In this document: positions 1-46,351 of the stretch, piece by piece
Layout of the letters: each line of letters opens with the position of its first letter
Numbering within the stretch: the first letter of the stretch is position 1
Assembly (NCBI GenBank): GCA_046757165.1
Contig: JBHHXT010000001.1
Location: 1 to 64,000, forward strand
Source of the DNA: a bacterium
Lineage (GTDB): Bacteria; Zhuqueibacterota; Zhuqueibacteria; Oceanimicrobiales; Oceanimicrobiaceae
Reading direction: 5' to 3'
Length of the DNA: 64,000 bases
Made by a program: the position numbers and the translations under genes
The notes under the pieces: model-generated
Told to the model about the DNA's origin: nothing
The model's database searches: none
Seen by the model: only the letters and a program-made list of their open reading frames with translations

Positions 1-3000
1 TGTTCCGTGACATTGATCGAAACCGTGGCAACATTGGAGACCCCTCCGTTGTTGTCAGTAACCGTATAGGTAAACGTGTCGGTGCCGGAGAAGTTTTGGT
101 TCGGCGTATAGGTCACCTCGCCGGTGGAATTGTCGACTGAAGTTGTTCCATTGTTGACATTGCCAACAATCGTAATGGTCGTAATGGTGCCATCGGGATC
201 GTTGTCATTCGCGGTCACGGGGATGGCGACCGGCGTGTCCTCGTTGGTGGTCACGGTATCGTCGCTTGCGACCGGCAGGTCATTCACACCCAGGACCGTA
301 ATTTTGACAAACGCTTCGTTGGAGACCGCGCCTTCCACATCCCGTACCGTGTAATCAAGCGTGTCGACACCAAAGAAATTGGGGTCCGGTGTATAGCTGA
401 GCAATCCTGTGGTCGGATGCACGCTTGCGGACCCATTCGGCGGTGGCTGCGTGATCGTCACCGAGGTCGGATCGATAGAGCCATCCGAATCGCTGTCATT
501 TACCAGGATGTTGATGTCGATTGGACTGTCCTCCAGCGTGACCGTGGAGTCATTCTGCGCCACCGGAAGATTGTTCACATCCTGAACCGTTACAAAAACA
601 GCCGCCTGGTTCGAGGTCGCGCCCTGGTCGTCCTGGACGGTATAAGTGAAGTTGTCCACTCCGAAAAACCCGGAATTGGGCGTGTAGGTGACACCACCGG
701 TCGCCGGGTTGATGGCAACCTGGCCGCTGGTCGGACCGCTGGTGACCGCAACTGTTGCCGGGTCGAGACTTCCGTCTGAATCGGTGTCGTTGATGAGTAC
801 GTCGATAACAACCGGCGTCTGCTCGTTGGTGGTGGCCACATCATTGCCCGCCACCGGCGTGTCGTTGACAATAACGGTCACACTGGCCGCGTTCGAAACC
901 ACCCCCTTATCATCAGCGACGGTGTAGGTGAAACTGTCCTGTCCCGAAAAGCCTGTCGTCGGGGTGTACGTGATCACTCCGGTCGCCGGGTTGACGGTGG
1001 CGCTACCGCTGCCCGGATTCGAGCCGATGGTTACCGAGCTTGCGTCCACGGAGCCATCTGTGTCTGTATCATTGCCCGTAACCGTTATCGCTACGGGGGT
1101 CTCTTCATTGGTGGAAGCCGTATCGTTTGCTGCGATAGGCGAATCGTTGACGAAGATCTTGACGGTCGCCGGATTGGAAGCGGCGCCTTCGTCATCCCGG
1201 ATGGTATAAGCAAAACTGTCTGTGCCAGAAAAGCCGGTGGTCGGCGTGTAGGTGACCACGCCGGTGGTCGGATGGACGGACGTCGCCCCGTTGCCAACCG
1301 GCGTGACAATCGCAACCGAGGTCAGATCGAGTGAACCGTTGGCGTCGGTGTCATTAGCTGCAACATCGATATCGACCGCGGTCTCTTCATTCGTCTCGGT
1401 AGAATCATTGGCCGCTACCGGAGTGTTGTTGACAGAGACCGTGACCGTGGCGGTGTTGGAGGTGGCCCCGTCCTCATCGTTGATGGTATAGATGAAGCTG
1501 TCGGTGCCCGTAAAACTGGGGTTCGGTGTGTAGGTGATCTCACCGGTCGCGGGATTGACGGAGGTCGAGCCGTTGGCACCCGGGCCAGACAGGATGGATG
1601 AGAAAACCAGGCTGCCATCGCTGTCGGTGTCGTTGGCCACCACCGGAATCGCGACTGCGACGCCCTGATTTGTGATGGCGGTGTCGTTGGCTGCCACGGG
1701 GGGGTCGTTGACATCAGTCACACTCACCACAACCGCTGCTGCGTTGGAGACCAGATTTTCATTGTCCTTCACCGTGTACGCCAGGGTATCCAGGCCGAAG
1801 AAATCCACCTCCGGCGTATAAGTGATGACGCCGGTTGTCGGGTTGACGGTGGCGGCGCCATTTGCCGGCGGCGTGGCAATCACAACCGTGCTCGCAATGA
1901 CCGAGCCGTCCACATCGGTGTCGTTTTGCGTCACATCGATGTCGACGGGCGTCTCCTCGAGCGTGGAGCCACTGTCATCGACAGCCACAGGCGCATCATT
2001 GACAGCCGTCACATCGACGGTCACCGTGGCAGGATTGGAGATGGCGTTGTCGTCATCCCTTATGGTGTATTCAAACGTGTCCGACCCGATAAAATCCAGG
2101 GCTGGTGTGTAAGTGACACGCCCTGTGCTCGGGTCGACCGACGCGGCCCCGTTGCCAGGCTGGCTGACGAGGGTAACCGACGTCGGCGCGGGTGTCCCAT
2201 CGAGGTCCGTATCATTGGAAGAGACGTCTATCTCAATCGCCGCGTCCTCCTGAGTCGTGACGGCGTCATCGACAGCAACAGGCGGATCGTTCACATCTGT
2301 AACCTGGACAACAACCGTGGCCGTGTTTGAGGTGGCACCATCCTCGTCGGCAACGGTGTAGGTGAACGTGTCCGTGCCGGCGAAATCTGTATCCGGGACA
2401 TAGGTGGCCACCCCGGTGGCAGGATTCACCGACGCGCTGCCGCTGGCCGGTTGGGACGCAATGACCACAGTCGTCGCAATGACGCTGCCATCTATGTCCG
2501 TGTCGTTGGTGGTGACGCTGATGTCGACGGACACTTCCTCCTGCGTGGTGACTGTATCATTGGCCGCCACCGGCGGGTCGTTGACATCGGTGACCGTTAT
2601 GAGCACGGCAGCAGGATTGGAGGGTGCGCCATCGTTATCCTGCGCCGTGTACTTCAAAGAATCCGTCCCGACGAAATCGAGCGCCGGTGTATAGGAAATG
2701 GCGCCCGTCGAGGTGTTGACAGAGGCGGTGCCGTTCGATGGTTGAACGGTGATCGCGATTGTCGCGGCGTCCACGGTGCCATCAATATCGCTGTCATTAT
2801 TGGTAACCAGAATGTCAACCGTCACTTCTTCCTGGGTCGTCGTGGTATCGTTGACTGCCACGGGCGGGTCATTCACATCCGCGACATTGACAAAGACTGA
2901 AGCGATGCTGGAGGTCGCACCCTCGTTGTCATTGACCGTATAATTGAAAACGTCCTGGCCAAAGAAATCCACCTCCGGGGTGTAAGTGACGACTCCGGTG

Positions 3001-6000
3001 GTTGGGTTCACCGTGGCGCTGCCATGGATCGGCTGGGTGGCCAGCGTCACAGAGGTCGCGATAACGGAGCCGTCCACATCGGAATCATTGCTCACCAGGG
3101 TGATGTCAACAGGAGTTTCTTCGTTTGTGCTGCTGGTGTCGTTGACCGCAACCGGCGCGTCATTGACCGCGTTCACCGTGATGTCCACCGACGCTGGCGT
3201 GGAGGCCAGACCGTCGTTATCCTTGACGGTATACGTGAATCCATCCGAGCCAAAAAAATCGGGCTCCGGCGTGTAGGTCACCACGCCAGTAGACGAATTA
3301 ACCGTGACAGAGCCGTTCCCTGGCGAGGTCGCAATGGTGACGGTGGATTTGTCGATTGAGCCGTCCAAATCGATATCGTTGGCTGTGACGTCGATTTGCA
3401 CCGGAGAATCCTCGCCCGTATTCCCGACATCATCAGCGGCAGTTGGCGGCTGTGTCACACGGATAGTCACATCTGCATCATTGGACTGAGAGCCGTCATT
3501 GTCCTCAACATGATAGCGAATGATATCGGTACCCCCGAAATTGTTGCTTGGCGTGTAGCTGATCACACCATTTGTCGGGTTGAGGGTCGCACTGCCATTG
3601 AAGGGACCGAGAACGATGGTGACGGTCGACGGAACCAGGAAGCCGCCGTCAGGATCGGTGTCGTTGCCCAGGATATCGATGTCGACCGAGGTATTGATGC
3701 TGGTCGCAATGACGTCGTCGTTTGCGATCGGAGGGCCAAAGACTCTGACAGAAACCGTTGCATCATTCGAGCTGAGGCCGGAATTGTCATCGACGGTGTA
3801 GGCAAAGCTGTCCTGGCCGAGAAACCCTGTGGCGGGTGTGTAGGTGACCACGCCGGTGATCGGGTTGACCGAAGTCGAGCCATTCGACGGCAGCGTTGTG
3901 ATCGTCACGGAGGTGAGGTTCAGGGAACCGTCCGGATCGCTGTCGTTTGCCAGGACGTCGATGGCGACCGCCACATCTTTGTCCGTGCTGGCAGAATCGT
4001 TGACGGCAACCGGTACAGCACTCACTGTCAGCGTGACTTTGGCCGTGTTCGAGACACCGCCATCATCGTCCTGCACCGTGTATTTCAGGCTGTCTGTGCC
4101 AAAAAAGTTGGCATTCGGGGTATAGGTGATCTCGCCGGTCGTGTTATTGACCGTGGCGTTGCCCCCAACCGGCAGCAGCGTCATATTGACACTGGCCGGA
4201 TTGAGTGTGCCGTCCGTGTCCGAATCGTTGACCAGGATATCGATGGTTACCGGTGCCGTGTTGTCCGTCGCTGCAGCATCATCCTGCGCCACCGGGTTAT
4301 CGTTGACGTCATTTATGGTAATGGTCACAGTCGCTTCACTTGAAGTCGCACCGCTGCTGTCTTGCACGGTGTAGGTGAAAGCGTCGCTACCATTAAAGTT
4401 TGCGTTCGGTGTGTAGGTCACCACGCCACTCGTCGAATTGAAGCTGGTCGAGCCATTGGTGACCGGGGTGATAATGGTCAGGGAGGAAGTCACCAGGCCG
4501 TCCGGGTCGCTGTCATTGCTCAGAGGCGAAAGGTCAACGGGTGTATCCTCATTGGTAAAAACGAGGTCGTCCTGCGCCACCGGTGAAGCGTTGATGCTCA
4601 CCGTGGCCACCACCGCCAGGGCGAAGGCGCCATCATCATCGGCCACAGTGTAGGTGAAGGTGTCTGTGCTCTTGAATGTGGGGTCGGGCGTGTACGTCAG
4701 CGCGCCCGTCGTCGGATCGACGGAAGCCGTGCCGCTGTCGGGTTGAGTGATGATGAACGTGGTCGTGGCATCGACCGTGCCATCGGAGTCCGTGTCATTG
4801 TTGGTGACGTCCAGAACCGTCGCAGCGCCTTGATTTACCGTAAAGGCGTCCGGCTGCGCAACCGGTCTCTTGTTGTTGAAGTCCAGGAAACCGTGCAGAT
4901 AGTGCTTCGTATTCTTGTCGCTGCCCAGCACCAGCAAACCGGTGGCAGAGTTGACCGTTTGTTTGGTCGAGGTAACATTGTTGGCGTCCGGGTCGGATGA
5001 GCTGCGGATGAAGATACGGCCGAGATTCTCCGGGGCCGGGAAACTCGGGTTGTCGAGATGAGTGACCTTGTAGTGCACCGTCAGCGGACTGGAGTTGGCA
5101 CTCTTGGCAAAAACATAAACGCTATCGGTCTGGGAATTCAGCACGACGATCGGGCGGGTCATATCAGTGTTGGTCAGCCAGGCGGTATGTCTCGACCAGA
5201 CACCCGTATTCGGATCGCGCTTACTGAAGTAGATGGCGGGGTTGGTTGACCCACCGAAACCGGTCTTTGTGACAGCCAGAACCGTTCCGTCGCTTTCCCG
5301 GACCGCGAGATTGATGTGGTCGTCCGCCACATTGGGCGAGCCGTTGAGCACGATTTCGCGCGGCTCCCATACGGTGTCCGAACTGTCATCCACGTGCACG
5401 GCGAAGTACATCACCTCAGTATTCTGATTCGACCACAGAATGCCTATTCTATCCCCTTGGAAGGCGGTGATGGCATTCAGGTCGATATCCAACAGATTCT
5501 CGCCCTGAACCGGCAGCTCAAAGGTCGCACCCCAATTCGTGTCGTCGACGCCATCTGTCCGGTTGATAACGACCGCCGTGTCATTCGTCCATGTTGCCCA
5601 GAGCTTGCCGTTGGAATCTTTGGCAATGGTCATCGCCCGGCTCTTGGTGGAGCCCGTTATTTGCACAGGAAAGCCGCCATCCACGGTGTATGTTTGTGAA
5701 ATAGAGTCATAGGTATAGCGGTTCAGAATAGCTACTTCTGACTTGCTCGCCTGGATGCTGGTCCGGGCGCGCGAGATGATGTACAAGGTGTTGCCATCGA
5801 CGAGCACGTCTGCTGCCGAGCGCTGCCGATCATCGACATCTGGCCCGACGTTGGTCCACCCGTGGGGACTGGTCCCGAAACGATGAATTCTGAACACCAA
5901 TGTGGCTGGGTCCCATAACACGGCCCACCAGAATCCATCATGATGCCAGAGTTTCGATTCTGGCTTTTCTTCAGTGATCGCCGAAGTGCCACCGGTGTAC

Positions 6001-6173
6001 TCGAAGTCCCGGAATCCGAGAAGTACTGGCGTCGACGGAAGTGTCTGAGCCGGCAGTACGTTCGGCAAGAATGAGATGAGGACACTAAACAGAAGCAAAA
6101 CTGTCCATTTGTTTGCCGCATCTTTCGAACACATTTGCTCCACACGCCCGCCTTGCTGTTGCCCGTTACTCAT
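1..6173 (-). CDS. Giant secreted surface protein/adhesin, paralog D (3'-truncated by window edge; >2057 aa): signal peptide, conserved head domain, ~17 Ig/cadherin-like (Big_9-type) repeats in window
   Basis: Not in the ORF track. Manual translation from ATG at 6173 (AGGGG RBS upstream) gives MSNGQQ...WTVLLLFSVLISFLPNVLPA|QTLPSTPVLLGFRDFEY...EEKPESKLWHHDGFWWAVLW...ADDHINL...TRP...TSTKQ, then NDxDxDG/YTP/SNxATV repeats. The same frame reads ...SINVTEQ at position 1. Confidence 0.93.
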   Translation of the reverse strand, partial: MSNGQQQGGRVEQMCSKDAANKWTVLLLFSVLISFLPNVLPAQTLPSTPVLLGFRDFEYTGGTSAITEEKPESKLWHHDGFWWAVLWDPATLVFRIHRFGTSPHGWTNVGPDVDDRQRSAADVLVDGNTLYIISRARTSIQASKSEVAILNRYTYDSISQTYTVDGGFPVQITGSTKSRAMTIAKDSNGKLWATWTNDTAVVINRTDGVDDTNWGATFELPVQGENLLDIDLNAITAFQGDRIGILWSNQNTEVMYFAVHVDDSSDTVWEPREIVLNGSPNVADDHINLAVRESDGTVLAVTKTGFGGSTNPAIYFSKRDPNTGVWSRHTAWLTNTDMTRPIVVLNSQTDSVYVFAKSANSSPLTVHYKVTHLDNPSFPAPENLGRIFIRSSSDPDANNVTSTKQTVNSATGLLVLGSDKNTKHYLHGFLDFNNKRPVAQPDAFTVNQGAATVLDVTNNDTDSDGTVDATTTFIITQPDSGTASVDPTTGALTYTPDPTFKSTDTFTYTVADDDGAFALAVVATVSINASPVAQDDLVFTNEDTPVDLSPLSNDSDPDGLVTSSLTIITPVTNGSTSFNSTSGVVTYTPNANFNGSDAFTYTVQDSSGATSSEATVTITINDVNDNPVAQDDAAATDNTAPVTIDILVNDSDTDGTLNPASVNMTLLPVGGNATVNNTTGEITYTPNANFFGTDSLKYTVQDDDGGVSNTAKVTLTVSAVPVAVNDSASTDKDVAVAIDVLANDSDPDGSLNLTSVTITTLPSNGSTSVNPITGVVTYTPATGFLGQDSFAYTVDDNSGLSSNDATVSVRVFGPPIANDDVIATSINTSVDIDILGNDTDPDGGFLVPSTVTIVLGPFNGSATLNPTNGVISYTPSNNFGGTDIIRYHVEDNDGSQSNDADVTIRVTQPPTAADDVGNTGEDSPVQIDVTANDIDLDGSIDKSTVTIATSPGNGSVTVNSSTGVVTYTPEPDFFGSDGFTYTVKDNDGLASTPASVDITVNAVNDAPVAVNDTSSTNEETPVDITLVSNDSDVDGSVIATSVTLATQPIHGSATVNPTTGVVTYTPEVDFFGQDVFNYTVNDNEGATSSIASVFVNVADVNDPPVAVNDTTTTQEEVTVDILVTNNDSDIDGTVDAATIAITVQPSNGTASVNTSTGAISYTPALDFVGTDSLKYTAQDNDGAPSNPAAVLITVTDVNDPPVAANDTVTTQEEVSVDISVTTNDTDIDGSVIATTVVIASQPASGSASVNPATGVATYVPDTDFAGTDTFTYTVADEDGATSNTATVVVQVTDVNDPPVAVDDAVTTQEDAAIEIDVSSNDTDLDGTPAPTSVTLVSQPGNGAASVDPSTGRVTYTPALDFIGSDTFEYTIRDDDNAISNPATVTVDVTAVNDAPVAVDDSGSTLEETPVDIDVTQNDTDVDGSVIASTVVIATPPANGAATVNPTTGVITYTPEVDFFGLDTLAYTVKDNENLVSNAAAVVVSVTDVNDPPVAANDTAITNQGVAVAIPVVANDTDSDGSLVFSSILSGPGANGSTSVNPATGEITYTPNPSFTGTDSFIYTINDEDGATSNTATVTVSVNNTPVAANDSTETNEETAVDIDVAANDTDANGSLDLTSVAIVTPVGNGATSVHPTTGVVTYTPTTGFSGTDSFAYTIRDDEGAASNPATVKIFVNDSPIAANDTASTNEETPVAITVTGNDTDTDGSVDASSVTIGSNPGSGSATVNPATGVITYTPTTGFSGQDSFTYTVADDKGVVSNAASVTVIVNDTPVAGNDVATTNEQTPVVIDVLINDTDSDGSLDPATVAVTSGPTSGQVAINPATGGVTYTPNSGFFGVDNFTYTVQDDQGATSNQAAVFVTVQDVNNLPVAQNDSTVTLEDSPIDINILVNDSDSDGSIDPTSVTITQPPPNGSASVHPTTGLLSYTPDPNFFGVDTLDYTVRDVEGAVSNEAFVKITVLGVNDLPVASDDTVTTNEDTPVAIPVTANDNDPDGTITTITIVGNVNNGTTSVDNSTGEVTYTPNQNFSGTDTFTYTVTDNNGGVSNVATVSINVTE

Positions 6174-6240: not shown

Positions 6241-9200
6241 CTACTTTTGCAGGATAATCCTTCTCGAAAACTTCTGACTCCCGACTTCCAGCCGCATGAA
6301 ATAGACGCCGCTGCCAACAAGAATGCCGCTGCTGTCATTCCCCTGCCAGCGAATTCGTTTAAAGCCGGCTGTCTGCACCTCATTCACCAATGTGCGCACT
6401 AACTGACCCCGCACGTTGTAGATCTCCAGTTTCACCTTCGCATCCTGTGGCAATGCGTACAGAATGTTGGTCTCCGGGTTGAACGGGTTCGGATAGTTCG
6501 GACTCAAGCTGATAGCGTCCGGCAGGTGTTTTGGCGTACCCGTGGCGGCGTCCGTAACTTCCGGCGAGGACCCTTCGGCCTCGCCCGTCTCGACGACCAG
6601 CTGCGGCGGATGCGGCCCTTCCTTTGATTCGTAAACTGCTGTCTCTGAACCATGGCTGTTGAGGCCAAAGCTGAACACGTTTTCGCCCCTCACGGCGGTC
6701 GTGACGTCGATCTCGACATACCGTCCCTTGCCTTCTCCTTCGAAAGGTGCCAGCGGCGCACCGCTGATTTCAGGTGCGTTGTCCCAGACCAGACCGTCCT
6801 CCTGCCAGGCAGTCTCCGAATTTCGGTACCGATTGGAAACCGCATAGACCTCGCCGCCCTCGTTGTCCTCGGCGATGAAGAGTTTGAGCGTTGCACGCTG
6901 GACTGCACCGGTCAGGCCGCTCACGCTAAACTTCAGGAAGCTGTAGAATTCAGCCGTACCGTTTGTAGCGCGCAGCTCGGAAACAGCGCCGAAGTTGTCT
7001 GTTGGTGACGAAGCGCGCACAAAGGCATCGTCGGTTGGCAGAAAAGCCAGGACCTGCGCCTCGCTCTTCTGCACCGCTATCTTGACCGTGGCGGTGTTCG
7101 AAAGCGCACCAGAATCGTCGCGGATCTGGTAGGTAAACTCATCTGCGCCAACGAAGCCCTTATCGGGATGATAAATCACGAGGCCGCGCTCACCGTCCAG
7201 TCTCACCGTGCCGTGCCCTGCCGGCGCAAGAATGGCAATGCTGGCGGCGTCAATGGCGCCATCTGAATCCGAATCGTTTTGGGTGACCGGAATCGAAACC
7301 GCGACACTGGAGTAGGTGGTGGCGTCGTCGTCGGTTGCCCGCGGTGTGACGTTACCGCTCATATTTACGGTCACGACCACCTGCGCCGGGTTGGACGCCA
7401 TCCCTTGCTCGTCATAGACGATGTAGTTGAAGGAATCCCTGCCAGTGAATCCGGGATGTGGTGTGTAAACCAGAACGCCGGTCGCGGCCTCAACCCGCAC
7501 CTTGCCGTTTGACGGCGAGGTCACCGGTGCCACCGTGCTCGTGCGCAGCTTTCCGTCCACATCCAGATCATTCGCAAGCACGTCAATCTCGACCGCGACG
7601 CCCGGCTTCGTCGTCATCGCGTCATCCACCGCACTGGGAGCCACATTCTCACCCTTGACAATTATTGCGCCGGCACCCGTCTGGACGATCAACTGTGGCG
7701 CAGTCGTCCCTTCTTTTGTGTAGTACTTGACCTGGTTGCCCGAATTACTCGTGATGCAGAAGCTGAAGGTGCCGTTGCCAGCAACCGCCCCGCTCACATC
7801 CAGGTCGACCAGGGTATTTTCAGCCACGGGGCCGAGCGTGCTCAGCGCACCGCTGATGACATCGGGCGCGTTGCCGGAGGTCAGCGTCCCCTCCTGCCAA
7901 GGTGTCGCGGTGCCGGTAAAGTTGTTGGAGGCCCGGAAGATAGAGCCCCCCTGGTCACTGCCATCCCCCGGGTCAACCGTGACGCGCAGCCGCAGAATGG
8001 CGCTCTGCACCGTGCCGGTGACGCCGGAGACAACAAACTTCAAATAAGTGGAGAATTTGCCGCGCTCGACCTTCATCGTGCCCTTGGTGCCATAATTCGC
8101 GCCGGGGTCAGAAAGCTTGACCTGGCCGTCATGGCTGGGCGCAAAGGTGAGGGTCTGCGATCCGCCGGCCACGCTGACGGTGACGGTGGCGGCGTTCGAG
8201 GTGGCGCCGTCGTTATCCTTGACGCTGTAGCTAAAACTATCGGTGCCACTGAAACCCGCGTTGGGTGTATAGGTGACAACTCCCGTGCTGCTGCTGACCA
8301 CGGCGCTGCCGTTCCCTGGCGGCGTGACGATGGTGACGGTCGTGACATTGATGGTGCCGTCACTGTCGGTGTCGTTGACTGTCACGTCAATCAAGATCGG
8401 TGTGCCGGCGATGGCGTTGGCGTTGTCATTGACAGCCACCGGCGGCTGGTTGCCACCGGTGACGACCACCGACACGGTGGCCGCGTTCGAGGTGGCGCCG
8501 TCATCGTCCTTTACCGTGTAGGTAAAGGTGTCGCTGCCACTAAAGCCGACTGAGGAGGTGTAGGTGACGACTCCCGTTCCGTTCACCGTGACCGTGCCGT
8601 TGCCGGGCGGAGTGACTATTGCAACTGTCGTCACATCGATGGTGCCGTCGCTATCACTGTCATTCGCCGTGACGTCGATGGCCACCGGGGTGCCCGCTGT
8701 TGTTGCTGAGTTATCATTTGCGGCAACCGGGGCAGTGTTGCCGCCTCCGCTACCTGTCACCACGATCAGCTCAGGTCGTACGGTGCCTTCTTTTGTAAAA
8801 TATTTGACTGCATTGCCAGAATTGGGCACGAGTGCAAAACTAAAGATTCCGTTGCCATGAACCGCGGCACTGACATCGAACTCCACGGTTTGGCTCGGCG
8901 AAATAGCCCCAAGCGTACTCAACGCAGACCCGGTCGCCGCCGGCGCATTGCCGGAGGTTAGTGTTTCTTCAACCCACGGATTCCCGGAGCCCGAAAAATT
9001 GTTGTCCACCAGGAACAGCGAGCCCCCGTTGTCGCCGCCGTCGGTGGCCGCATCCGTCACTCGCAGTCTCACTCTAGCGCTCTGAATCGCGCCCGTGACC
9101 CCGCTTACAACAAATTTCAAGTAGGAGCTGAATTTCCCGCCATCGACTTTCATCGTGGCTTTGCTGCCATAATTGAGCCCGGCGTCGGTCAGCTTCACCT

Positions 9201-12200
9201 GGCCGTCGTCAGTCGGCTCGAACGTGAACGTGCCACCCGTGCCGCCGCCATCCGGCTGTACCGTCACGGTCACGGTGGCGGCGTTGGAGGGTGCACCGTC
9301 GTCGTCGTTGACCGTGTACGTGAAGGTGTCGGTGCCATCAAAGCCGCCATTCGGTGTGTACGTCACCACGCCGGTACCGCTGTTCACGGTGGCCGTTCCG
9401 TTCCCCGGGGGAGTCACAATGGAGACCGTGGTGAAATTGATAGTGCCGTCGCTGTCCGTGTCATTGGCTGTGACGTCAAGCGCAACCGAATTGCCGGCGG
9501 TGGTGGTGCCATTGTCGGCGTTCGCAACCGGAGCCTGATTCCCTCCGATAACCTGAACCGTCACAGTCGCGGCATTTGATTGTGCACCGTCGTCATCGCG
9601 AACCGTATACGTAAAGGTGTCCGTGCCGCCGAACCCGGCGTTCGGAGTATAGGTCACGAAGCCAAAGGTCGCATTCACACTTGTGGTCCCGTTTGCGGGC
9701 TGGCTGGTGATGGTCACCGACGTGAAATCGACCGTCCCGTCGCTATCGGAATCGTTGGCCGTGACGTCGATCGGCACCGGGTTGCCGGCTGTCGTGGCGG
9801 CATTGTCGTTGGCCGCCACCGGCGGATTGTTTCCTGAGCCGCCGGACCCCGTCGTGATGACTAACTGCGGCGAGGTACTGCCTTCTTTGGTGTAAAATTT
9901 CACCTTGTTGGTAGAATTGGGAACAATGGCAAAGCTGAATGTGCCATTGCCGTTGACGACGTTTGTGACCTCGAACTCCACGGTTTGACTCGGCGCTACC
10001 GCACCCAGGGTGCTCAGAGGCGACCCGGCCGCGGCCGGCGCATTGCCGGAAGTCAGCGTCTGTTCAACCCACGGGATCCCGACCCCGGAAAAATTGTTAT
10101 CCACCTGGAAAATAGAGCCGCCGTTGTCGCCCCCGTCTGAAAGTGCATCGGTCACCCGCAGTCTCACTCTGGCGCTTTGAACCGCGCTGCTGATACCGGT
10201 CACCACAAACTTCAGGTACGAGCTGAACTTGCCGCCATCCACTTTCATGGTGGCTTTGGTGCCATAATTTGCCCCCGGGTCTGTCAGCTTCACCTGGCCG
10301 TCCTCAGTCGGCTCAAAAGTGAACGTCCCGCCCGTGCCGCCGCCAGCCACGCTCACGGTCACAGTGGCACCATTAGAGTTTGCCCCATCATCATCCTTCA
10401 CGGTGTAAGTGAAGGTGTCGGTGCCGTCGAAGCCGGCGTCGGGCGTGTAGGTCACAACGCCAGTCAGCCCGCTAACAGTGGTGGAGCCATTCGTTGGCGG
10501 AGTTCCGATGGTCACCGTGCTCACATCGATGGTGCCGTCACTATCGGAGTCGTTGGCGGTAACATCGATGGCGACGGAGTTACCAGCGGTGGTGTTGGCG
10601 TTGTCATCGGTCGCCACCGGCGCCACATTGCTGCCCTGAACCTGTACGGTCACCGTTGCAGCGTTGGACGTCGCACCGTCGTCATCCTTCACGGTGTACG
10701 TAAAGGTGTCGGTGCCGCTGAACCCGGCGTTGGGCGAATAGGTCACAACTCCGGTGCTGCCATTTACGCTGGCGCTTCCGTTTAAGGGCTGTGAGACGAT
10801 GGCAACCGTCGTCACGACGATGGTCCCATCGCTGTCGGTATCATTGACGGTCACGTCGACCGCTACTGGCGTGCCGGAAACGGTGGCACCATTGTCATTT
10901 ACGGCCACCGGCGGATTATTGCTCGAGCCACCGGAACCGGTCGTCACGATCAGCTCTGGCCGCGCGATGCCTTCCTTGGTGTAGTACTTGACGCCATTGG
11001 TAGAATTCGGAACGACCGCAAAGCTCACGATGCCATTGCCCGTGACCGCGCCCGTCACATCGAGCTCAACCGTCTGGTTCGCTGAAATAGGCCCTAAAGT
11101 ACTCAATGGAGATCCCGTCGCCGCCGGCGCATTGCCAGAAGTCAAGGTCTGCTCAACCCAGGGAATGCCCGTGCCGGCAAAATTGTTGTCCACCAGGAAG
11201 ATGGAGCCGCCGTTATCCCCGCCGTCCGTCGCAGCATCCGTCACACGCAATCTGACCCTGGCGCTCTGAATCGGAGCGCTGACGCCCGTGACGTTGAACT
11301 TCATGTACGAGGTGAACTTGCCCCCATCAACCTTCATGGTGGCTTTGACGCCATAATTCGCGCCGGGATCCGTCAGCTTCACTTGCCCATCATGCATGGA
11401 TTCAAACGTAAAGCTCTGCGAGCCACCTGAACTTTGCACCGTTACCGTGACTGTCGCTGCATTTGACGTTGCTCCGGCATCGTCGTTCACCGTGTAGGTA
11501 AATGTCTCTGTGCCGGCAAACCCACTGGCCGGCGTGTAGGTCACTACACCCGTGGTGTTGTTCACGGTCGCCGTGCCGTTCGCAGGCAGTGTCACGATGG
11601 CAACGGTCGTCACATCAACCGTCCCGTCGCTATCCGTGTCGTTGGCGGTGACATCGACCGAAACGGAGATCCCCGCGGTCGTGCTGGCATTGTCATTCAC
11701 CGCAACCGGCGCTGTGTTGCCGCCGAGCACTTCAATGGTCACGGTTGCCGCGTTTGAGGTCGCTCCGTCATCGTCCCGCACCGTGTATGTGAAGGTGTCG
11801 GTGCCACCAAAACCCGCGTTGGGAGTATACGTCACAACCCCGATCGCAGCGTTCACACTCGTCGCACCATTCGCTGGCTGAGAAACCACTGTCACCGTTG
11901 TCACATCTACCGTTCCATCGCTGTCACTGTCATTCGCGGTCACATCGATGCCAAGCGGGAGACCCGCAGTGGCGGTGGCATTATCATTCACCGCGACCGG
12001 TGCACTGTTTTGTCCGCCCCCCCCTGTCGCAATCACCAGTTGCGGGGGGACTGTTCCCTCTTTGGTGTAGTATTTGACTCGATTGCCGGAATTCGGTCTG
12101 ACGGCAAAGCTAAAGGTGCCGTCGCCGTTCACGGCACTGGTCACATCGAATTCAACCACTTGATTGGTCGCAACAGCGCCAAGGGTGCTCAGCGCTGAGC

Positions 12201-20985: not shown

Positions 20986-21285
20986 TGATGCGTCTCCATA
21001 TTAGTCAAGCATAGCTGTCCACGTAGTTGCAATGCGCAGAAAAAGTTTACCGTATGCGTGAAATTTTTGTTGTCAGTGCTTTTCAGGGGGAAAGGCAGAT
21101 GTTTGGTCGAGGGGGCAGTTTTAACAACCTTTCCAAGATTGTAAAGAACTGTATTCTATGCCATAGGCAATGCTGTCCTTTGGCTATCAGCCAAGCAAGT
21201 TCTATATTGACTTAGCAGACATAAAGTAGTACTCACAGTAAATGAGAATGCAGATAAAATATTCAAAATAAATGAGTCTGGCCGC

Positions 21286-38724: not shown

Positions 38725-38932
38725 AACGACTCCTTAGAACGTGTTAAGAGAATGTGACGACTAACGAACTTGTTAGGTCTGTGAAATCAGTTGTGGGGCA
38801 GGCAGTATGTTGTATCAAAAACAAAATCAAAATCTTATCAAAGCATAGCTTCTTATAAGGGATGTATACACCCGAAGGCAGAAGAGTGCAGAGAGAAATG
38901 TTAATGACTGTTAAGGAAAATAACCGACAGGA

Positions 38933-41900
38933 CTACTTTTGTAAGGCGAGCTTGCGGCAGAAAATCCGATTTCCGACCTCCAGGCGTAGAAAATAAATGC
39001 CTGACCCCACTTCGCGACCTGAATTGTCTCGACCGTTCCAGATCACTTTCTTGTGGCCAGGCGATTGCATGGCGTCCACTAGGCTGCGGACCTCCTGGCC
39101 CCGAGTATTGAAAATAAGGAGCTCGACCCGCTTTTCCTTCGGCATGGCATATTCGATGGTGGTCTCACCGTTGAACGGATTGGGATAGTTCGGGTGCAAC
39201 TCGAATTCCTCCGGCACGCCAATCGCTTGCGCCTGGCCATCGCCATCTTTGCGAGAGTTCAGCGTCAGCTCGTCAAGCTCAGATCGACTGGAAGTGGCGA
39301 TGAATTCAACCAGGAGCTCCGGCGAAATCGCGCCCTCCTTAGAGAGGTATTTTACCCGGTCCGTGGCTGTACTTTTGATTGCAAAACTGTAAGTGCCGTT
39401 TGCCGCAATCGCTTCAGAGACATTAAACTCCACCGTCGAATTCACAGAAACAGAGCCGGCGCTGCTCAACGGCTCGCCGGTGATTTCAGGCGCGTTGACT
39501 GCATTCAAGTTCTCCTCAACCCAGGGTGCAGAACCGCTGGCGAAATTGTTGGCGACCCGGTAGACGGCGCCGCCGTCTTTGCTGCCGTCGCTGCTGCCGT
39601 CGGAGACGCGCAGACGTAGCAGGGCGTTGGTGACCGTGCCATTAATGCCTGAAACACTAAACTTGAAGTAGGCCCTGAACCTGTCCTGCGCCACCTTCAC
39701 CGTTGTCTTGCTGCCATAGTTCTTCAAGGGCTCACTGACTTTCACCTGAGCATCGTGGGACGGCTTGAAAGTCAGCGTGGTAGCACCACCGGATCTGATG
39801 ACCTCGATGGTGACGGTTGCCACACTCGATTCAGCCCCATCATTGTCTCTTACCGTGTACGTGAATACATCTGAACCACTGAAACCGTTTGCCGGTGTGT
39901 AGGTGATCACGCCGGAATTCGGGTTGACCAGCAGGTCGCCGTTGGCCGGTTCATCGATAATGGCAACGGAGGAGATATCCAGGTGGCCATCATCATCGTG
40001 GTCATTAAAGAGAACGTCGATCACAGCGGCGATGTTCTCTGGCGTTGCAGTCTCATCGTTGACCGCAATTGGGCGTTGATTGCTACTGGCGGCGGCCACC
40101 TGAATGAACAATGCCGGTGGCGATATGCCTTCCTTTGTAAAGTACTTCACCCGGTTGGTGGACCCGCTTGCCAGCGCAAAACTGTACACCCCATCCCCTT
40201 GAATCGTCGCGCTCACATCAAATTCGACCACCGTGTTTGGACTGACTGCACCGGCTTTGTCAAGCAGAGACCCGGCGATCGCCGGAGCATTACCGGCGGT
40301 CAAGCCCTCCTCCTGCCAGGGCGTCGTCGACGCCAGATAGGTATTCGAAACAGAATAGAGTGACCCGCCGTCATCACCGCCGTCGCTCGACCCTTCGCTT
40401 GTGTGCAGCCGCAGTGTTGCATGCTCCACTTCACCGGTCAGGCCGCTCACCTGAAACTTCAAATAGAACAAGAATTTGTCGAGATCGAGCTTGGCGGTGC
40501 TTTTGCTGCCGTAGTTTTTGCCGGGTTCCGTTACTTTTACCTGGCCATCTTCAATCGACTGGTACGTGAAGGAGTCGTCCCTCCCGGCGCTGTTGACCGT
40601 TACAGCCACCGAGGCTTCGTTAGAAACAGCGCCACGGTCATCTTCGACCCGGTAGGTGAACTGGTCCGCGCCTGTGAAACCACTCGACGGCGTGTAGGTG
40701 GCAACACCGGTCGCCGAATTGAGCGAAACAGCGCCATGCGCCGGCAGCGTCCCGATGGTCACAGTCGCGGGTTCGAGCGTCCCATCACTATCCCTGTCAT
40801 TCGCCAGAATCTCAATGGCAACAGGCGTGTCCACCTCCGTTTCAGCTTGATCATTTTCAGCCACCGGAGGCAGGTTACTGGTTCCACCCATCGTGGTCTC
40901 AATGAAGAGCTCTGGTGGCTGAATCCCTTCCCTGGTAGAATATCTGATCAGATTCGTCGAATTGTTTGTCAGAGCAAAGCTATAAAATCCGTCGCCATTG
41001 ATCACGCTGGTGACATCAAACTCAACCAGGCTGCTCGGATTCACGGGACCCGCGCTTCCCAGAGCTATACCGCCAGGATCCGGGGCATTGCTCGCAGTTA
41101 AGCTGTTCTCGTCCCAGGGCATCGTCGTGTCCTTAAAGTCGTTTGACACCGAGAATAGCGAGCCGCCGTCATCCCCCCCGTCACTGGAGCCGCTGCCAAC
41201 GTGCAAACGCAAAAGAGCCTGCCGGACGCCGTTTTGCAGCCCGCTGACTTGAAACTTGAGATAGAAGATGAACTTGTCGAACTCGAGCTTGGCTGTTCCC
41301 TTGCTGCCGTAGTTCTTGCCTGGCGCACTGAGCTTGATCTGGCCGTCCTCAATCGGATGAAAAGTTACCTCTCCTCCAGCGGATCCGCCGTTCACCGTCA
41401 CAGTCACGGTTGCTGGAGCAGAGGTGGCTCCGTCATCGTCTTTCACATGATAGGAAAAGCCATCCTGCCCACTGAAACCATCTGCCGGCGAGTAGGTGAT
41501 ACGGCCGGTCGAACCACTGATGGAAACGGAGCCGTGAGCAGGTAGACTGACAATCTCTACCGTGGTCACGTCGATCGAGCCGTCACTGTCCGTGTCATTG
41601 GAAAGGACATCAATTTCAACAGGTGTGCCTGAGGAGGTTTCGGCGGCATCGTCCCCGGCCACCGGCGGCAGATTACCGCCGCCACCGGATGCGGTTTCGA
41701 CCACCAACTGTGGAGGATGCGCTCCTTCCTTTGTAAAATACTTTACCTGATTCATCGATTCGCTCGAAATTGCAAAGCTGTAGACGCCATCGTCAGCGAT
41801 GGCGCCAGTCACATCAAACTCAACCTCTGTTTTTGGAGACACAGCGCCGGCGCTCGCCAACGCTGCGCCGAATATCAGCGGGGCGTTTCTGGCCGTAAGC

Positions 41901-44900
41901 TCATCTTCATCCCAGGGTGTGGTAGTGTCTTGGTAGGTGTTTGATACCCCATAAAGTGATCCGCCGTCATCTCCGCCGTCGCTGGAGCCATCGGTCACTC
42001 GCAATCGCACCACCGCCCGCGCGACAGCACCGGCCAGGCCGCTCACGCGAAACTTTAGATACACGACGAATTTGTTTTGCTCAACTTTGGCCGTGCTCTT
42101 GGCGCCGTAATTGTTGTCTACCTCCGTCACCTTCACCTGCCCATCCTCGATGGAAACAAAAGTAGATTGGCCGCCACCGGGATTGCTGTTTACCGTCACC
42201 GCCACTGTCGCCTCGTTTGAAACCGTGTTATTATCGTCCCGCACCGTGTAGCGAAAGCTATCTGATCCCACAAAGCCACTGTCTGGCGTATAAGAAATCG
42301 CCCCGCTGCTGGCGTCCACGGTCGCACTGCCATGCGTGGGCGCAGTGGTGATTGTGACGGAAGAAAGATCGAGCGCCCGCTCTGCATCCAGGTCATTGTC
42401 TGTCACCGGGATAGTCACGGCTGTCCCTTCCTGCGTGCTTGCAGAATCCGCTTCCGCGAGCGGAGGATCATTCACGGCCTGAACCGTAATCGACACGGTC
42501 GCGATGTTGGAGCTGGCGTTCTCGTTGTCGCGGACAACGTAGGTGAAGGAGTCTTGCCCGGCATAGTCATCATCCGGAACGTAATTGACTCCGGTCGAGT
42601 GGACGATAGCGCTCCCATGCCCGGGTCCTGACCTGATGAGCACCGTTTCTGCCACCACGAGACCATCCAAATCAGTGTCATTGGCGGTTAAATCGATCGA
42701 GATCGGCGTATCTTCTTCTGTGACCACGGCGTCATCGTTGGCCACAGGTGGCACGTTTGACCCCACGAAAATCGTGACTGCCGCTTCATTGGAAGTAAAT
42801 CCGTCGAGATCCTTGACCGTATATCGCACCGCGTCGATGCCGTCGAAATTGATTTGCGGTGTGTAGTGGATCATGCCTGTGGCCGGATCGACAGTGGCCG
42901 AGCCATTGAATGGCCCAAGGAGCTTGACAACCGACCTGAGGTCGAGACCGGCGCCGTCCGGATCGAAATCATTCTGCAGAACGGCGATGTTCGCGCTGTT
43001 CCCGACTCCTGTGAAGGTCGTATCATCTCGTGCAACGGGTGGGCCGATGACGCGCACAACAACCGTTGCCGAATTAGAGACCTGGCCTCCTTCATCCCGC
43101 ACGGTATAGTGGAACCGGTCAAAGCCGCTGAAGCCTGCACTCGGCGAGTATCTGATTAGCCCGTTGCTTCCAACCGTACTTGCCTGACCGTTGACCGGAG
43201 GCGTGGCGATGGCCACCGTGCTCGCATCGATGGCATTGTCGATATCAAAGTCGTTGCTGATCACGGCAATATCGACAGGTGCTCCGAGGCCTGTCACGGC
43301 GCTGTCGTTGACGGCAATGGGCTTGTCGTTATCGCTCAGGACGATAATCAGCACGCCGGCGACCTGGGACGAGGCGTTTTCCTCATCGTGAATGGTGTAT
43401 CGAAAAGCATCCGAGCCGAAAAAATTAGCCTCGGGTGTGTAGCTCACAATCCCGGTCAGCGAATTCAGCACGATGGTCCCGTGCTCGGGTTGGCCTTGAA
43501 AAGCGATCGTGGCCGGTTCCACCCTGCCATCCACATCGAAGTCGTTCTCCAGAACCGGAATCTCGACCATCGTCTCTTCCTGGGTCATCACGCTATCGCT
43601 CACAGCGACCGGTGGGTCGTTCAGGGAGTTGACCGCCAGCGAAACGGTGGCCATGTTGGACAGAGTGCCGTCGTTGTCTCGGATGGAATAGGTGAAGAAA
43701 TCCAGGCCAAAGGTGTTGGCATCAGGAGAGTAGGTCACCACGCCAGTGACAGCGTTTATCTCCAGGGTGCCGTTCAATGGCCCTTCATGAATCTCAACCG
43801 TCGCGCGGTCAAGACTCCCATCCGGGTCGCTGTCATTGGCCGTTATGTTGATTGGAACAGGAATATCTTCGAAAGTCGTCGCAGCGTCGTCAACCGTCAC
43901 CGGAGGCAGGTTGACCCTGATCGTGATCAAGGCTTCGTTTGAGGTATTGCCTTTGTCGTCGTCGACTTTGTAGCCAATGAGCTCGGCGCCTGAATAGCCG
44001 GCATCTGGCGTGTAGGTGACAGCTCCATTGGTCGCATTGATGGAGATGGCACCGTTAAGGGGGCCAAACGTGGTTCTCAGGGTGGCCGCGTTGATCGTCC
44101 CGCCGTCCGGATCAAAATCATTGTCCAGCACAGCAATCGCAATCGGGGTGTCAGCGATCGTGATCGCCGAGTCATTCACAGCCACGGGGGGACCGATAAC
44201 ATCGATGGTGATCGTGGCCGGATTGGATTTCAGGCCCGAATCGTCACTCACGGTGTAGGTCAAAACCTCGGTGCCAAAGTTGCCCGTCTCAGGGCTGTAC
44301 GTTACGACCCCGGTGTGTGAATCGATATGAATGGTTCCGTTTGAAGGTGTTGTCGCAAGTGAGATCGTCTCTGGCAGCAAGGATCCATCCAGGTCCGTGT
44401 CGTTGGCGAGGATGTCGATGTCGACAACCACCCCCTCCTCAGTGACAGCGATGTCATCTGAGGCCACTGGCCTGGCAAGAACGAGAATCGCGACCCGGGC
44501 AGCATTGGAGGTCGCCCCGGCCGGGTCGTGGATCGTGTAGGTGAAGGTGTCGGTGCCAAAGGAATTGGGGCTCGGCGTGTACGTCACCTCGCCCGTGCTG
44601 TTGTTGACCGAGACCGTGCCGTTTGCCGGGAAGGTACTGATGGTGGGCACCATCTCCGCCACGTTGTGGTCGACATCGGAATCGTTACTCAGGACCGCAA
44701 GGGGTACCGCGGTGGCGTTGTCTGTTGTCGCCGAATCCGGAGCAGCGACAGGCGGGTCATTGAGTTCATTAACCGTGATCGTGACAATGGCCTCATTGGA
44801 GAGAGCGCCCTTGTTGTCGCTGATGCGGTACGTAAAAATGTCTGAACCACTAAAATCTGCATTCGGAGTATAGGTGACCACAGCTGACAGCGAGTTGACC

Positions 44901-46351
44901 AGGGCAGTGCCATGGGCCGGCTGAGTGCTCAGGGTGAGGGATGCGGGATCCAATGCGCCATCAGGGTCGCCATCGTTGGCAAGAATATCGATGGCTATGG
45001 CATTGTCCTCAAAGATGGTACGCTGGTCATCTGCGGCTACCGGTGATTGGTTGTCGACGCCACCATTGAGATCGATGTAGTTGTGCAAATACCGCTTGGT
45101 ATCGCTATCGGACGCCAACACCAGGAGGCCGGATTCGTTCGTAATGCACTGTTTCGTCGACGTTGGGTCATTGACATCATCGTCTTTTTCGCTCGAAATC
45201 AGCACGGTACCGAAACCGGCGGGGAAAAACGGGTTCGCAAGATGAGTCTGTTTGTAATAGATGCGACATGGATGTTCGAGCCCGCGCGCAACCACGTAGA
45301 TGTGTTCTGTATCAGAGTTGAAGAGGACAATCGGGCGTGTATGTTTGTGGTCCCCAAAGCTGAAAGGATAGCGGGTCCACTCGCCAGAAAGGGTTCTTTT
45401 GAGCAAAAAAATCTTGGGATCGCTGATTGCTTGCAGAGAAGTCTTTGTGGTTGCCAGAATGGTCCCATCTTCGGTGCAGGCGACACTCAGGTTGATATGG
45501 TCGTCGGCAACCGCCCCAAGCTCAGGGTCCGCCAAGGCAGCCTCACGTGGCTCCCATTTGGTATCGCTTTTGTTATCCTTATGAACGGAGAAGTAGATCT
45601 TCTGATCCGGTTGGTGACTCCACATGATCCCGATTCTATCACCCCCAAATGCTATGACCGAACAGATGTCATCATCCAGTGTACTGCTCTTCTGCACAGG
45701 GAGTTTAAAAGGCTTTCCCCAAGCCAGGTCGTCGCCCAGAGAGCGGTTGATCATGACCTTGTGGCTCTGGTTCCACGTTACCCAGAGCTGGCCAGTAGAA
45801 TCCTTGGCCAGAACGAGCGTTTCTGATTTTCGGGTATTGATCTGAACAGGAAAGCCATCATCCAGGGTGTACGACTTGGTCGCCGGCTCATAACTGAATC
45901 GATACAGCCTGGCGCCTTGTGGGCCGTGCGCTGATTTGTGATTCATCTTCGCACGCGAGGCCACGTAGAGCTTGGTGCCATCCCATAAGACATCCGAGCT
46001 CGAGCGCGGGCGGTCGTCCACATCCGGGCCGACGTCGTTCCAGCACTGGTTGGCAAGGTCCAGACGATGGATTCGGTGGTGCAGGGAATCCGGACTCCAC
46101 AGGATGCCCCACCAAAAGCCATCGTTGTACCATAGCTTGCTTTCCGGTTTGGCCTCCGTGGGTGCGGTGGTCACGTCACCGCTCCTGAACTTGAAGTCCC
46201 GGTAGCCAACTTCCACAGGCGTTGAACTACATTCCTGCGCCTGCACGGCTGGCAAGAAAAAACCAACTTGAAAGCTGAAAACCAACACGAAACAAACCGA
46301 CAGCAGACCCCAGGCAAGGCCACCCCATGCCCTATGGTTTTCGACCACCAT
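38933..46351 (-). CDS. Giant secreted surface protein, paralog A (2472 aa): head domain, ~13 Big_9/cadherin-like repeats, 4 DNRLRE/CBM96-like modules, T9SS-type/FlgD-Ig C-terminal domain
   Basis: 2472-aa ORF with AAGGGGG RBS and signal peptide ending VQA|QE. Same motifs; C-terminus NYPNPFNGET...SGIYFLRL...RKLALQK. Confidence 0.95.
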   Translation of the reverse strand: MVVENHRAWGGLAWGLLSVCFVLVFSFQVGFFLPAVQAQECSSTPVEVGYRDFKFRSGDVTTAPTEAKPESKLWYNDGFWWGILWSPDSLHHRIHRLDLANQCWNDVGPDVDDRPRSSSDVLWDGTKLYVASRAKMNHKSAHGPQGARLYRFSYEPATKSYTLDDGFPVQINTRKSETLVLAKDSTGQLWVTWNQSHKVMINRSLGDDLAWGKPFKLPVQKSSTLDDDICSVIAFGGDRIGIMWSHQPDQKIYFSVHKDNKSDTKWEPREAALADPELGAVADDHINLSVACTEDGTILATTKTSLQAISDPKIFLLKRTLSGEWTRYPFSFGDHKHTRPIVLFNSDTEHIYVVARGLEHPCRIYYKQTHLANPFFPAGFGTVLISSEKDDDVNDPTSTKQCITNESGLLVLASDSDTKRYLHNYIDLNGGVDNQSPVAADDQRTIFEDNAIAIDILANDGDPDGALDPASLTLSTQPAHGTALVNSLSAVVTYTPNADFSGSDIFTYRISDNKGALSNEAIVTITVNELNDPPVAAPDSATTDNATAVPLAVLSNDSDVDHNVAEMVPTISTFPANGTVSVNNSTGEVTYTPSPNSFGTDTFTYTIHDPAGATSNAARVAILVLARPVASDDIAVTEEGVVVDIDILANDTDLDGSLLPETISLATTPSNGTIHIDSHTGVVTYSPETGNFGTEVLTYTVSDDSGLKSNPATITIDVIGPPVAVNDSAITIADTPIAIAVLDNDFDPDGGTINAATLRTTFGPLNGAISINATNGAVTYTPDAGYSGAELIGYKVDDDKGNTSNEALITIRVNLPPVTVDDAATTFEDIPVPINITANDSDPDGSLDRATVEIHEGPLNGTLEINAVTGVVTYSPDANTFGLDFFTYSIRDNDGTLSNMATVSLAVNSLNDPPVAVSDSVMTQEETMVEIPVLENDFDVDGRVEPATIAFQGQPEHGTIVLNSLTGIVSYTPEANFFGSDAFRYTIHDEENASSQVAGVLIIVLSDNDKPIAVNDSAVTGLGAPVDIAVISNDFDIDNAIDASTVAIATPPVNGQASTVGSNGLIRYSPSAGFSGFDRFHYTVRDEGGQVSNSATVVVRVIGPPVARDDTTFTGVGNSANIAVLQNDFDPDGAGLDLRSVVKLLGPFNGSATVDPATGMIHYTPQINFDGIDAVRYTVKDLDGFTSNEAAVTIFVGSNVPPVANDDAVVTEEDTPISIDLTANDTDLDGLVVAETVLIRSGPGHGSAIVHSTGVNYVPDDDYAGQDSFTYVVRDNENASSNIATVSITVQAVNDPPLAEADSASTQEGTAVTIPVTDNDLDAERALDLSSVTITTAPTHGSATVDASSGAISYTPDSGFVGSDSFRYTVRDDNNTVSNEATVAVTVNSNPGGGQSTFVSIEDGQVKVTEVDNNYGAKSTAKVEQNKFVVYLKFRVSGLAGAVARAVVRLRVTDGSSDGGDDGGSLYGVSNTYQDTTTPWDEDELTARNAPLIFGAALASAGAVSPKTEVEFDVTGAIADDGVYSFAISSESMNQVKYFTKEGAHPPQLVVETASGGGGNLPPVAGDDAAETSSGTPVEIDVLSNDTDSDGSIDVTTVEIVSLPAHGSVSISGSTGRITYSPADGFSGQDGFSYHVKDDDGATSAPATVTVTVNGGSAGGEVTFHPIEDGQIKLSAPGKNYGSKGTAKLEFDKFIFYLKFQVSGLQNGVRQALLRLHVGSGSSDGGDDGGSLFSVSNDFKDTTMPWDENSLTASNAPDPGGIALGSAGPVNPSSLVEFDVTSVINGDGFYSFALTNNSTNLIRYSTREGIQPPELFIETTMGGTSNLPPVAENDQAETEVDTPVAIEILANDRDSDGTLEPATVTIGTLPAHGAVSLNSATGVATYTPSSGFTGADQFTYRVEDDRGAVSNEASVAVTVNSAGRDDSFTYQSIEDGQVKVTEPGKNYGSKSTAKLDLDKFLFYLKFQVSGLTGEVEHATLRLHTSEGSSDGGDDGGSLYSVSNTYLASTTPWQEEGLTAGNAPAIAGSLLDKAGAVSPNTVVEFDVSATIQGDGVYSFALASGSTNRVKYFTKEGISPPALFIQVAAASSNQRPIAVNDETATPENIAAVIDVLFNDHDDDGHLDISSVAIIDEPANGDLLVNPNSGVITYTPANGFSGSDVFTYTVRDNDGAESSVATVTIEVIRSGGATTLTFKPSHDAQVKVSEPLKNYGSKTTVKVAQDRFRAYFKFSVSGINGTVTNALLRLRVSDGSSDGSKDGGAVYRVANNFASGSAPWVEENLNAVNAPEITGEPLSSAGSVSVNSTVEFNVSEAIAANGTYSFAIKSTATDRVKYLSKEGAISPELLVEFIATSSRSELDELTLNSRKDGDGQAQAIGVPEEFELHPNYPNPFNGETTIEYAMPKEKRVELLIFNTRGQEVRSLVDAMQSPGHKKVIWNGRDNSGREVGSGIYFLRLEVGNRIFCRKLALQK

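Follow-up and report, generated by a model that had tools for sequence, protein, structure and literature searches.

A conserved tandem array of giant, probably surface-exposed proteins that carry one unnamed type of head at different stalk lengths

The window analysed here, the first 64 kb (positions 1 to 64,000) of contig C1 (JBHHXT010000001.1) of genome G000, from a bacterium that probably belongs to candidate division KSB1, contains four giant genes, A to D, whose products carry one type of N-terminal head on stalks of different length. The array is real and conserved. Its products are read as a form of giant fibrillar surface protein whose heads make up a new family, and a function for them is proposed below. 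In our preferred account, to which we give about an even chance, the proteins are C-terminally anchored fibres that grip acidic polysaccharide, probably the cell's own, by both foot and head, with the paralogues providing graded reach.

The open reading frames (ORFs) A, B, C and D are co-oriented on the minus strand (the parts, gaps and leaders of these genes and the gene at 48749-51361 are located on this strand as well) and comprise 15,255 codons in total, with gaps of only 208 bp (A-B), 300 bp (B-C) and 67 bp (C-D), confirming the arrangement described in the initial annotation. The common plan consists of a signal peptide, a head of ~390 residues, a stalk of Big_9/tandem-95 repeats, CBM96 carbohydrate-binding modules spaced by one or two such repeats, a short acidic linker and a type IX secretion system (T9SS) sorting domain of type A, the tail and this C-terminal domain (CTD) being present in A, B and C. 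Stalk repeats were counted as the Big_9 domains before the first CBM96. Gene A (38933-46351, 2472 residues) has its head at 45071-46231, a 10-repeat stalk at 42191-45043, a tail of four CBM96 and three Big_9 at 39290-42160, and the CTD at 38936-39211. In gene B (21286-38724, 5812 residues), the head (37432-38595) is followed by a 40-repeat stalk (25888-37416), a tail of five CBM96 and six Big_9 (21628-25857) and the CTD (21289-21564). Gene C (6241-20985, 4914 residues) encodes a head at 19705-20853, a 25-repeat stalk at 12514-19689, a tail of six CBM96 and ten Big_9 at 6574-12492, and the CTD at 6244-6519. Gene D runs off the contig start, and its 5' part (1-6173, ATG at 6173) is an open frame of 2057 residues with a signal peptide, a head (4881-6041) and at least 17 Big_9; the remainder is absent from the assembly, in which no open-ended long-stalk ORF was found elsewhere. 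The four heads share 48-55% pairwise identity, and of 30 head positions inspected, 22 carry the same residue in A, B, C and D, which supports the earlier proposal of one head type on different stalks and suggests that the pocket is the same. Two further head paralogues are encoded in G000, one behind a LamG domain (contig C33) and one without a stalk (C38).

Mis-assembly, which had been named as a possible refutation, can be rejected, since the repeats are diverged (median DNA identity within a gene 51-57%, maximum 60-73%) and the same array, in the same order and behind the same upstream genes, is found in a genome of another genus (G004). The DNA was also followed in four sequencing runs, all hydrothermal-vent metagenomes of one study, of which X1-X3 are possible sources of this DNA; no RNA dataset is listed with it, which has no bearing on expression. 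A 23,473-bp contig spans positions 1-20000 in X1 and a 22,324-bp contig spans 24331-40000 in X1-X3; the run contigs track the window, and no supported length change was seen across these four runs. Contigs of X1 and X2 stop 31 bases past position 1, as would be expected if the assembly graph branched within D. The tail of B (~23100-24360) splits into short alternative contigs at about half depth with clustered differences, which suggests two alleles or exchange between tail modules.

The head is present in 11 of 20 genomes of the same family and in 47 of 167 genomes of the phylum. The array itself, which the initial annotation had proposed to seek in related genomes, recurs in G004 as one-to-one orthologues in the same order: genes A', B', C', D' and E' stand in tandem with open frames of 2965, 5900, 4927, 6264 and 5614 residues and stalks of 14, 34, 26, 39 and 38 repeats, D' also having six CBM96 and a CTD. 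The fifth gene, E' (G004:C9:177483-194324; L043-L044), is headless, consisting of a signal peptide, the 38-repeat stalk, six CBM96 and a CTD. Gene valS follows the array in G004 and has other neighbours in G000. In G008, C (21 repeats) is followed by D (at least 31), and pieces are found on short contigs of G003 and G005.

Heads at the same position in G000 and G004 are 70% (A), 66% (B), 61% (C) and 68% (D) identical, compared to 46-55% between different positions, and a tree built from 26 heads places those of A, B, C and D in clades of their own. When repeats are compared one by one with G004, the best match lies in register for 18 of C's first 19 repeats, for 14 of D's 17 and for 7 of A's 10. 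Repeat numbers between genera (10 and 14 for A, 40 and 34 for B, and 25, 26 and 21 for C) define stable stalk classes of about 10-14, 21-26 and 34-40 repeats, and the order of length is kept, with A shortest, C in the middle, and B and D longest. Orthology by position, together with diverged repeats in register, indicates that the stalk lengths are old and gene-specific.

The heads match no Pfam or NCBIfam family in profile scans, and their relatives (120 listed) are named by their other domains only. A profile built from the head recovers 3,265 sequence clusters at E 0.001, with named loci in KSB1, Calditrichia, Chloroflexota, Eisenbacteria, Acidobacteria and Actinomycetota; the closest of these (46-56% identity) are mostly from candidate division KSB1. 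The head of C was modelled as a seven-bladed β-propeller with a mean predicted local distance difference test score (pLDDT) of 93.6. Its best fold matches are the GH145/PL42 structure 5MUM (Z 28.6, root-mean-square deviation (rmsd) 4.0, 345 residues aligned), CylK (Z 28.0), PLL lectin (Z 27.6) and FoRham1 (7ESK, Z 27.4), followed by PL25 (Z 24.2). The propeller lyases of families PL42/GH145, PL24 and PL25 (BNR_4) resemble the head in their seven blades and in the basic residues and histidine of their conserved loops, and match one another at Z values above 32-43, with lectins below 27 (PMC8377490). However, the catalytic His-His-Tyr-Arg set (with His85, His105 and Arg166) is not kept, the co-linear register being without a catalytic histidine, and PF15892 (BNR_4) has no match in 24 heads or in G000. 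With Z values of 24-29, below the range within these families, and without their catalytic set, the head does not belong to PL42, PL24 or PL25. Sequence searches of the PDB with the head gave weak Kelch/WD matches only, and a head homologue in the ESM Atlas falls in unnamed clusters with a minor BNR_4 lead (19% of members). The head falls under no named family and represents a new one. A reading of the head as a rotated BNR_4 lyase, with the DDH sequence of blade 5 supplying the catalytic histidine, was rejected: when five three-blade slices were aligned as profiles, the rotated register did not emerge, and the residue that would serve as neutraliser varies (Thr 34%, Lys 14%, Arg 12%).

Conserved residues of the head, numbered from the first residue at 20859, are K29, K33, R75, D189, W205, Q208, D242-D243-H244, K261, T297-R298 and K325, of which those other than R75 and K325 are 81-98% conserved among 196 sequences; a conserved Lys/Arg/His/Asp set is common to the four paralogues. 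Within the propeller, these conserved residues precede strand A or follow strand B, in different blades, and, given this strand order and the propeller topology, are likely to lie on one face. The head is predicted to have one central basic pocket with a histidine and acidic residues, for a uronate-rich or otherwise anionic glycan, and the balance tips slightly towards a head that would cut its glycan rather than only bind it. The domain is compact and well folded, belongs to a large unnamed family, is expressible alone and is likely to represent a new glycan-binding or glycan-cutting family; assays of the head would give a first handle on the use of T9SS by KSB1 bacteria.

An Ig/cadherin-type stalk, as initially proposed, is borne out by both motifs and model fold. 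The repeats are acidic, a DxD-type motif occurs in 106 of 111, and an NDxP linker is found at 64 of 95 repeat junctions, the remaining junctions having a shorter linker. A three-repeat model (pLDDT 95.1, predicted template modelling score 0.68) is closest to cadherin ectodomains (Z 12.6, rmsd 6.2, 268 residues aligned) and to the extender of an Aeromonas repeats-in-toxin (RTX) adhesin (Z 10.2), values that are middling for repeats and, being below 13, may reflect a common arrangement. The motifs suggest that the stalk is stiffened by Ca2+. With the 4.4 nm per repeat reported for MpAFP (PMC4083281), stalks of 10, 25 and 40 repeats would have contour lengths of 44, 110 and 176 nm.

Two known groups of fibrillar proteins resemble the array. 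The Periscope proteins (SasG, Rib, Sgo_0707, CdrA and CshA; PMC8201768) also combine an N-terminal functional domain, a tandem-domain stalk and a C-terminal anchor, with the reach set by repeat number. However, their repeats are near-identical and change rapidly in number within one gene, whereas the array repeats are diverged and for the most part keep their register from one genus to the other, each length having its own paralogue beside the others. In single genes, repeat slippage is known to adjust reach through the length of the stalk; stable same-head paralogues of different length would, if the present reading is true, be a different way of organising the cell surface in depth. The giant RTX adhesins of the type I secretion system (T1SS), such as MpAFP, LapA, SiiE and Aeromonas Lap (PMC4083281), whose extenders are stiffened by Ca2+, likewise contain tens of acidic Ig-like repeats of ~100 residues. 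The array proteins differ in having a T9SS CTD at the C-terminus, an N-terminal head, a second ligand cluster (CBM96) at the anchor end and four to five tandem paralogues, and Pfam and NCBIfam scans detected neither a HemolysinCabind/RTX match nor a T1SS signal in them. Giants with Big_9/cadherin repeats are known as a class (PMC11573180). In the literature searched, nothing was found on this architecture or on KSB1 with type IX secretion, as judged by title or start of abstract and with subscription papers mostly outside the search, and the main text of the Zhuqueibacterota phylum paper, in its accessible part, is silent on secretion or adhesion. The initial view that the array is not a described system therefore holds for this literature and for the head family.

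The carbohydrate-binding-like modules noticed at the outset are CBM96 in all three complete proteins, where they pass the profiles PF24517/NF033679 (four in A, five in B and six in C; 15 in the window). The founder of CBM96, from alginate lyase Dp0100 (7VBO), binds alginate through Lys and Arg residues, with a binding set of K10, K22, K25, K27, K31, R36 and Y159, in which Arg36 is essential (PMC9971899). In an alignment to this founder that is weak (E 0.0008), the Lys10 and Lys25 positions are Lys or Arg in all 15 modules, a Lys lies one position off K22, K27 and K31 are not kept, and Y159 falls outside the aligned part. The tail, in contrast to the founder, has four to six copies. Nor is it confined to the array, as CBM96 is also found in 18 other ORFs of G000, under heads unrelated to those of the array. 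Domains in 16 of these ORFs that were scanned include alginate-lyase-like, heparinase-like, CotH (2), FG-GAP (5), GSDH, phytase-like, GDSL, β-helix, peroxidase, and LamG or ASH. We infer that the CBM96 tail is a general grip that holds exported proteins on acidic polysaccharide near the cell. Its linkers are Gly-rich, and these motifs suggest a flexible multivalent foot. A head protein of 6377 residues in G009 (G009:C23:40875-60005; L047-L048) has its CBM96 tail spaced by 21 TIG domains and LamG instead of Big_9.

Export by T9SS had been proposed together with a search for its core genes, and the signal as well as SprA, PorU and PorV are present. Por_Secre_tail/FlgD_Ig terminates A, B and C, in which TIGR04183 scores 30.7-40.1 bits (cut-off 23), and 153 ORFs of G000 have a CTD-like end. 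Signal peptides were read by eye from the sequence; predicted cleavage in A-D leaves Gln at the mature N-terminus, a rule linked to Bacteroidota. SprA and PorU are over their cut-offs in G000, PorU at 844 bits (cut-off 420) with its GHG and Cys motifs kept, and a PorZ-like gene is just under (129 plus 127 bits, cut-off 260). The PorV family gives 16 of 24 matches over cut-off, so that this T9SS has many PorV-family shuttles. The search for gldKLMN fared less well: GldK gave partial matches under cut-off only and GldM and GldN gave none in G000, in searches that lacked a working positive control (the controls matched nowhere either) and did not include GldL. The T9SS of G000 may perhaps use a different motor. 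The array proteins share the signal peptide and Por_Secre_tail with type A cargo of Bacteroidota, and SprA, PorV and PorU with its machinery; they differ in the probable KSB1 host, the FlgD_Ig-like type of CTD, and GldK, GldM and GldN not being found with the models used. In Porphyromonas, the CTD of such cargo is cleaved by PorU and the protein is anchored to anionic lipopolysaccharide (PMC8545088, PMC4560394), and T9SS may occur in other phyla of the Fibrobacteres-Chlorobi-Bacteroidetes group (PMC11285876).

In the preferred reading, the proteins would be exported by Sec, with Gln at the predicted mature N-terminus, and pass through SprA, after which PorU would remove the CTD and anchor them, as family knowledge suggests. 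A stalk of fixed, gene-specific length, putatively stiffened by Ca2+, would carry the head outward, and the CBM96 foot and the head would both grip acidic polysaccharide, tying the cell into slime or biofilm matrix at several reaches. Tethered to the surface, the fibres would cross-link or remodel a matrix of acidic polysaccharide. KSB1 bacteria are reported to be common in biofilms (PMC11683472).

The gene neighbourhoods of head relatives bear on the ligand. Recurrent neighbours are a priming glycosyltransferase, Wzc/autokinase, Wzx, Wzy, GT2, GT4 and a deacetylase; 17 of the 120 listed relatives carry an alginate-lyase domain and 28 carry CBM96, both of which point to an anionic glycan, and fusions among 33 scanned relatives include GT2 (1) and phytase-like domains (2). 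At least two exopolysaccharide-type genes occur in 15 of the 46 head loci of at least 10 kb (28 shorter loci being left out), compared to 3.4% of size-matched G000 windows. These neighbourhoods favour the organism's own exopolysaccharide, over a foreign polymer, as the most likely ligand. The initial annotation had offered a layered adhesin or a polysaccharide-attack system; the gene context leans towards own exopolysaccharide rather than attack without deciding, and the layering is blurred, as described next.

Several results weigh against this reading. With the stiffness of MpAFP (persistence length 9.5 nm; PMC4083281), the mean reaches of the three stalk classes would be ~26, 44 and 56 nm and overlap, so that reach would be graded rather than sharply layered unless the stalks are stiffer; a persistence length of at least 50 nm would set the reaches apart (38, 81 and 113 nm). 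The stalk of B is in register with G004 at only 5 of 40 repeats and differs from it by 6 repeats in length, and the complete array is found in one other genome only, other family members having pieces on broken contigs. In the weak CBM96 alignment, the position of Arg36 is Phe in all 15 modules, with Lys or Arg adjoining in 13, and the ligand may therefore differ from alginate. The top four fold matches of the head are effectively tied (Z within ~1), leaving lyase, lectin and CylK unseparated, and comparison of the head with the BNR_4 profile is not significant (probability 8-12%). In the locus count, the queries were drawn from the very loci that were counted, several of these are related to one another (Anaerolineae), a single genome served as control, and 26 of the 46 loci have no exopolysaccharide-type gene; the array itself lies outside any polysaccharide operon. 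Finally, the separate conserved leaders of the genes, described below, leave room for the genes to be used in turn, not together.

A bolder form of the preferred reading, which we put forward only tentatively, is a hard-wired periscope ladder, in which KSB1 cells would co-display a new propeller that acts on glycans, at three to five fixed reaches, while the CBM96 foot would serve as a general grip on the cells' own acidic polysaccharide. In this way they would construct or trim a capsule or biofilm matrix arranged in strata, and the head would be the founder of a large, new family of carbohydrate-active proteins that occurs in exopolysaccharide loci across several phyla.

Alternatively, the array could serve foraging, the head being an enzyme, either lyase or hydrolase, that attacks foreign polyuronates such as the alginate-like or glycosaminoglycan-like matrix made by other microbes, with CBM96 holding the substrate and the stalks reaching in. 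PL42/GH145, PL25 and PL24 are among the best fold matches, the head is fused to an alginate-lyase domain in 17 of the 120 listed relatives and to PF14099 in 1 of the 33 scanned, and the CBM96-tailed cargo of G000 includes the alginate-lyase-like and heparinase-like proteins noted above. We nevertheless consider foraging unlikely: a single catalytic domain per 250-600 kDa would be costly, the array is not flanked by genes for transporters or catabolism, head relatives are located in biosynthetic loci, G004 retains its headless fifth copy, and the catalytic histidine of PL42 is not kept in the co-linear register.

The paralogues might instead be ordinary giant adhesins used one at a time, that is, separately regulated alternatives whose length differences are historical and which display no ladder. 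This would agree with conserved non-coding blocks of its own in each gap, with the overlap of the predicted reaches, with the occurrence of the head on many stalk types and without a stalk, and with the abundance of Big_9/cadherin giants in environmental bacteria (PMC11573180). However, four orthologues and their length order persist at 61-70% head identity, at a cost of more than 15,000 codons for an unchanged pocket, and we regard this explanation, too, as an improbable one. Least probable, and in our view hardly to be expected, are released matrix scaffolds or cell-contact fibres that are unanchored after CTD removal and bridge matrix strands or other cells, with a putatively adhesive stalk: the headless E', the cadherin-like stalk fold, the known release or anchoring of T9SS cargo (PMC10202324) and a CBM96 foot that could hold without covalent anchoring speak for them, but the genome encodes a PorU whose motifs are intact as well as a PorZ-like protein.

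The gaps between the genes contain conserved leaders. The B-C gap (20986-21285) shares conserved non-coding blocks with its counterpart in G004 and is likely a gene-specific promoter or leader; it contains the word CTGCCCC at 21112-21118. In the A-B gap (38725-38932), a 22-nt block conserved with G004 holds the same word at 38795-38801, and the leader of A has it at 46446-46452; it was not found in the orthologous leader of G004. This word, which was found post hoc, lies on the sense strand of the longest T9SS cargo genes, 77-169 nt ahead of their starts. It occurs in 8 of 109 leaders of CTD genes compared to 25 of 2561 others, and before 6 of 10 CTD genes longer than 2000 residues (3 of 7 without A-C). 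Among relatives, it is found in 8 of 24 leaders tested, mostly from G004 and G005, and before 1 of 89 head genes in the wider loci. Other leaders with the word belong to genes on G000 contigs C120, C35, C17 and C5 and to loci L012, L038, L172, L184, L011 and L183. CTGCCCC is possibly a promoter, pause or regulator site. A search against Rfam gave no match, and neither a sigma-70 site nor a terminator was found upstream of A.

Control of the array by UpxY/ops antitermination was considered and rejected, as an ops-like element is absent from the arrays of G000, G004 and G008. Elsewhere in G000, a UpxY-family antiterminator (G000:C3:90303; family loci L195-L212) heads a Wzc-containing polysaccharide operon, and its gene is preceded by an ops-like element (about TGGGACTGACNNGGCGGAGCTGT) whose core is found in 16 of 18 family loci, two of those without the upstream part.

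Two genes upstream of A, at 48749-51361 and in the same position in G004, lies a gene whose product joins an unnamed membrane domain with multiple passes to a polysaccharide deacetylase domain of PgaB-like type. In G003:C27, a gene for a related deacetylase adjoins the head genes. The region 46781-63969 encodes a beta-lactamase-family membrane protein, a hydrolase, ThiI, M61 and S8 peptidases, an FAA hydrolase, a CBS protein, and GT9, GT4-like and FemAB-like proteins, and is of housekeeping type. This upstream gene order is largely kept in G004, without the M61 gene.

Unnamed kinase-like genes recur next to head genes in the wider set of 74 loci: HprK-related in 11, phosphotransferase-like in 8 and thymidylate-kinase-like in 10 (e.g. 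L061:8138-9295, L106:341-1558 and L106:2831-3601). A family of phytase-like CTD genes is found beside head genes in 14 of the 74 loci. Together, these kinase-like and phytase-like neighbours hint at a phosphorylated or otherwise modified polysaccharide.

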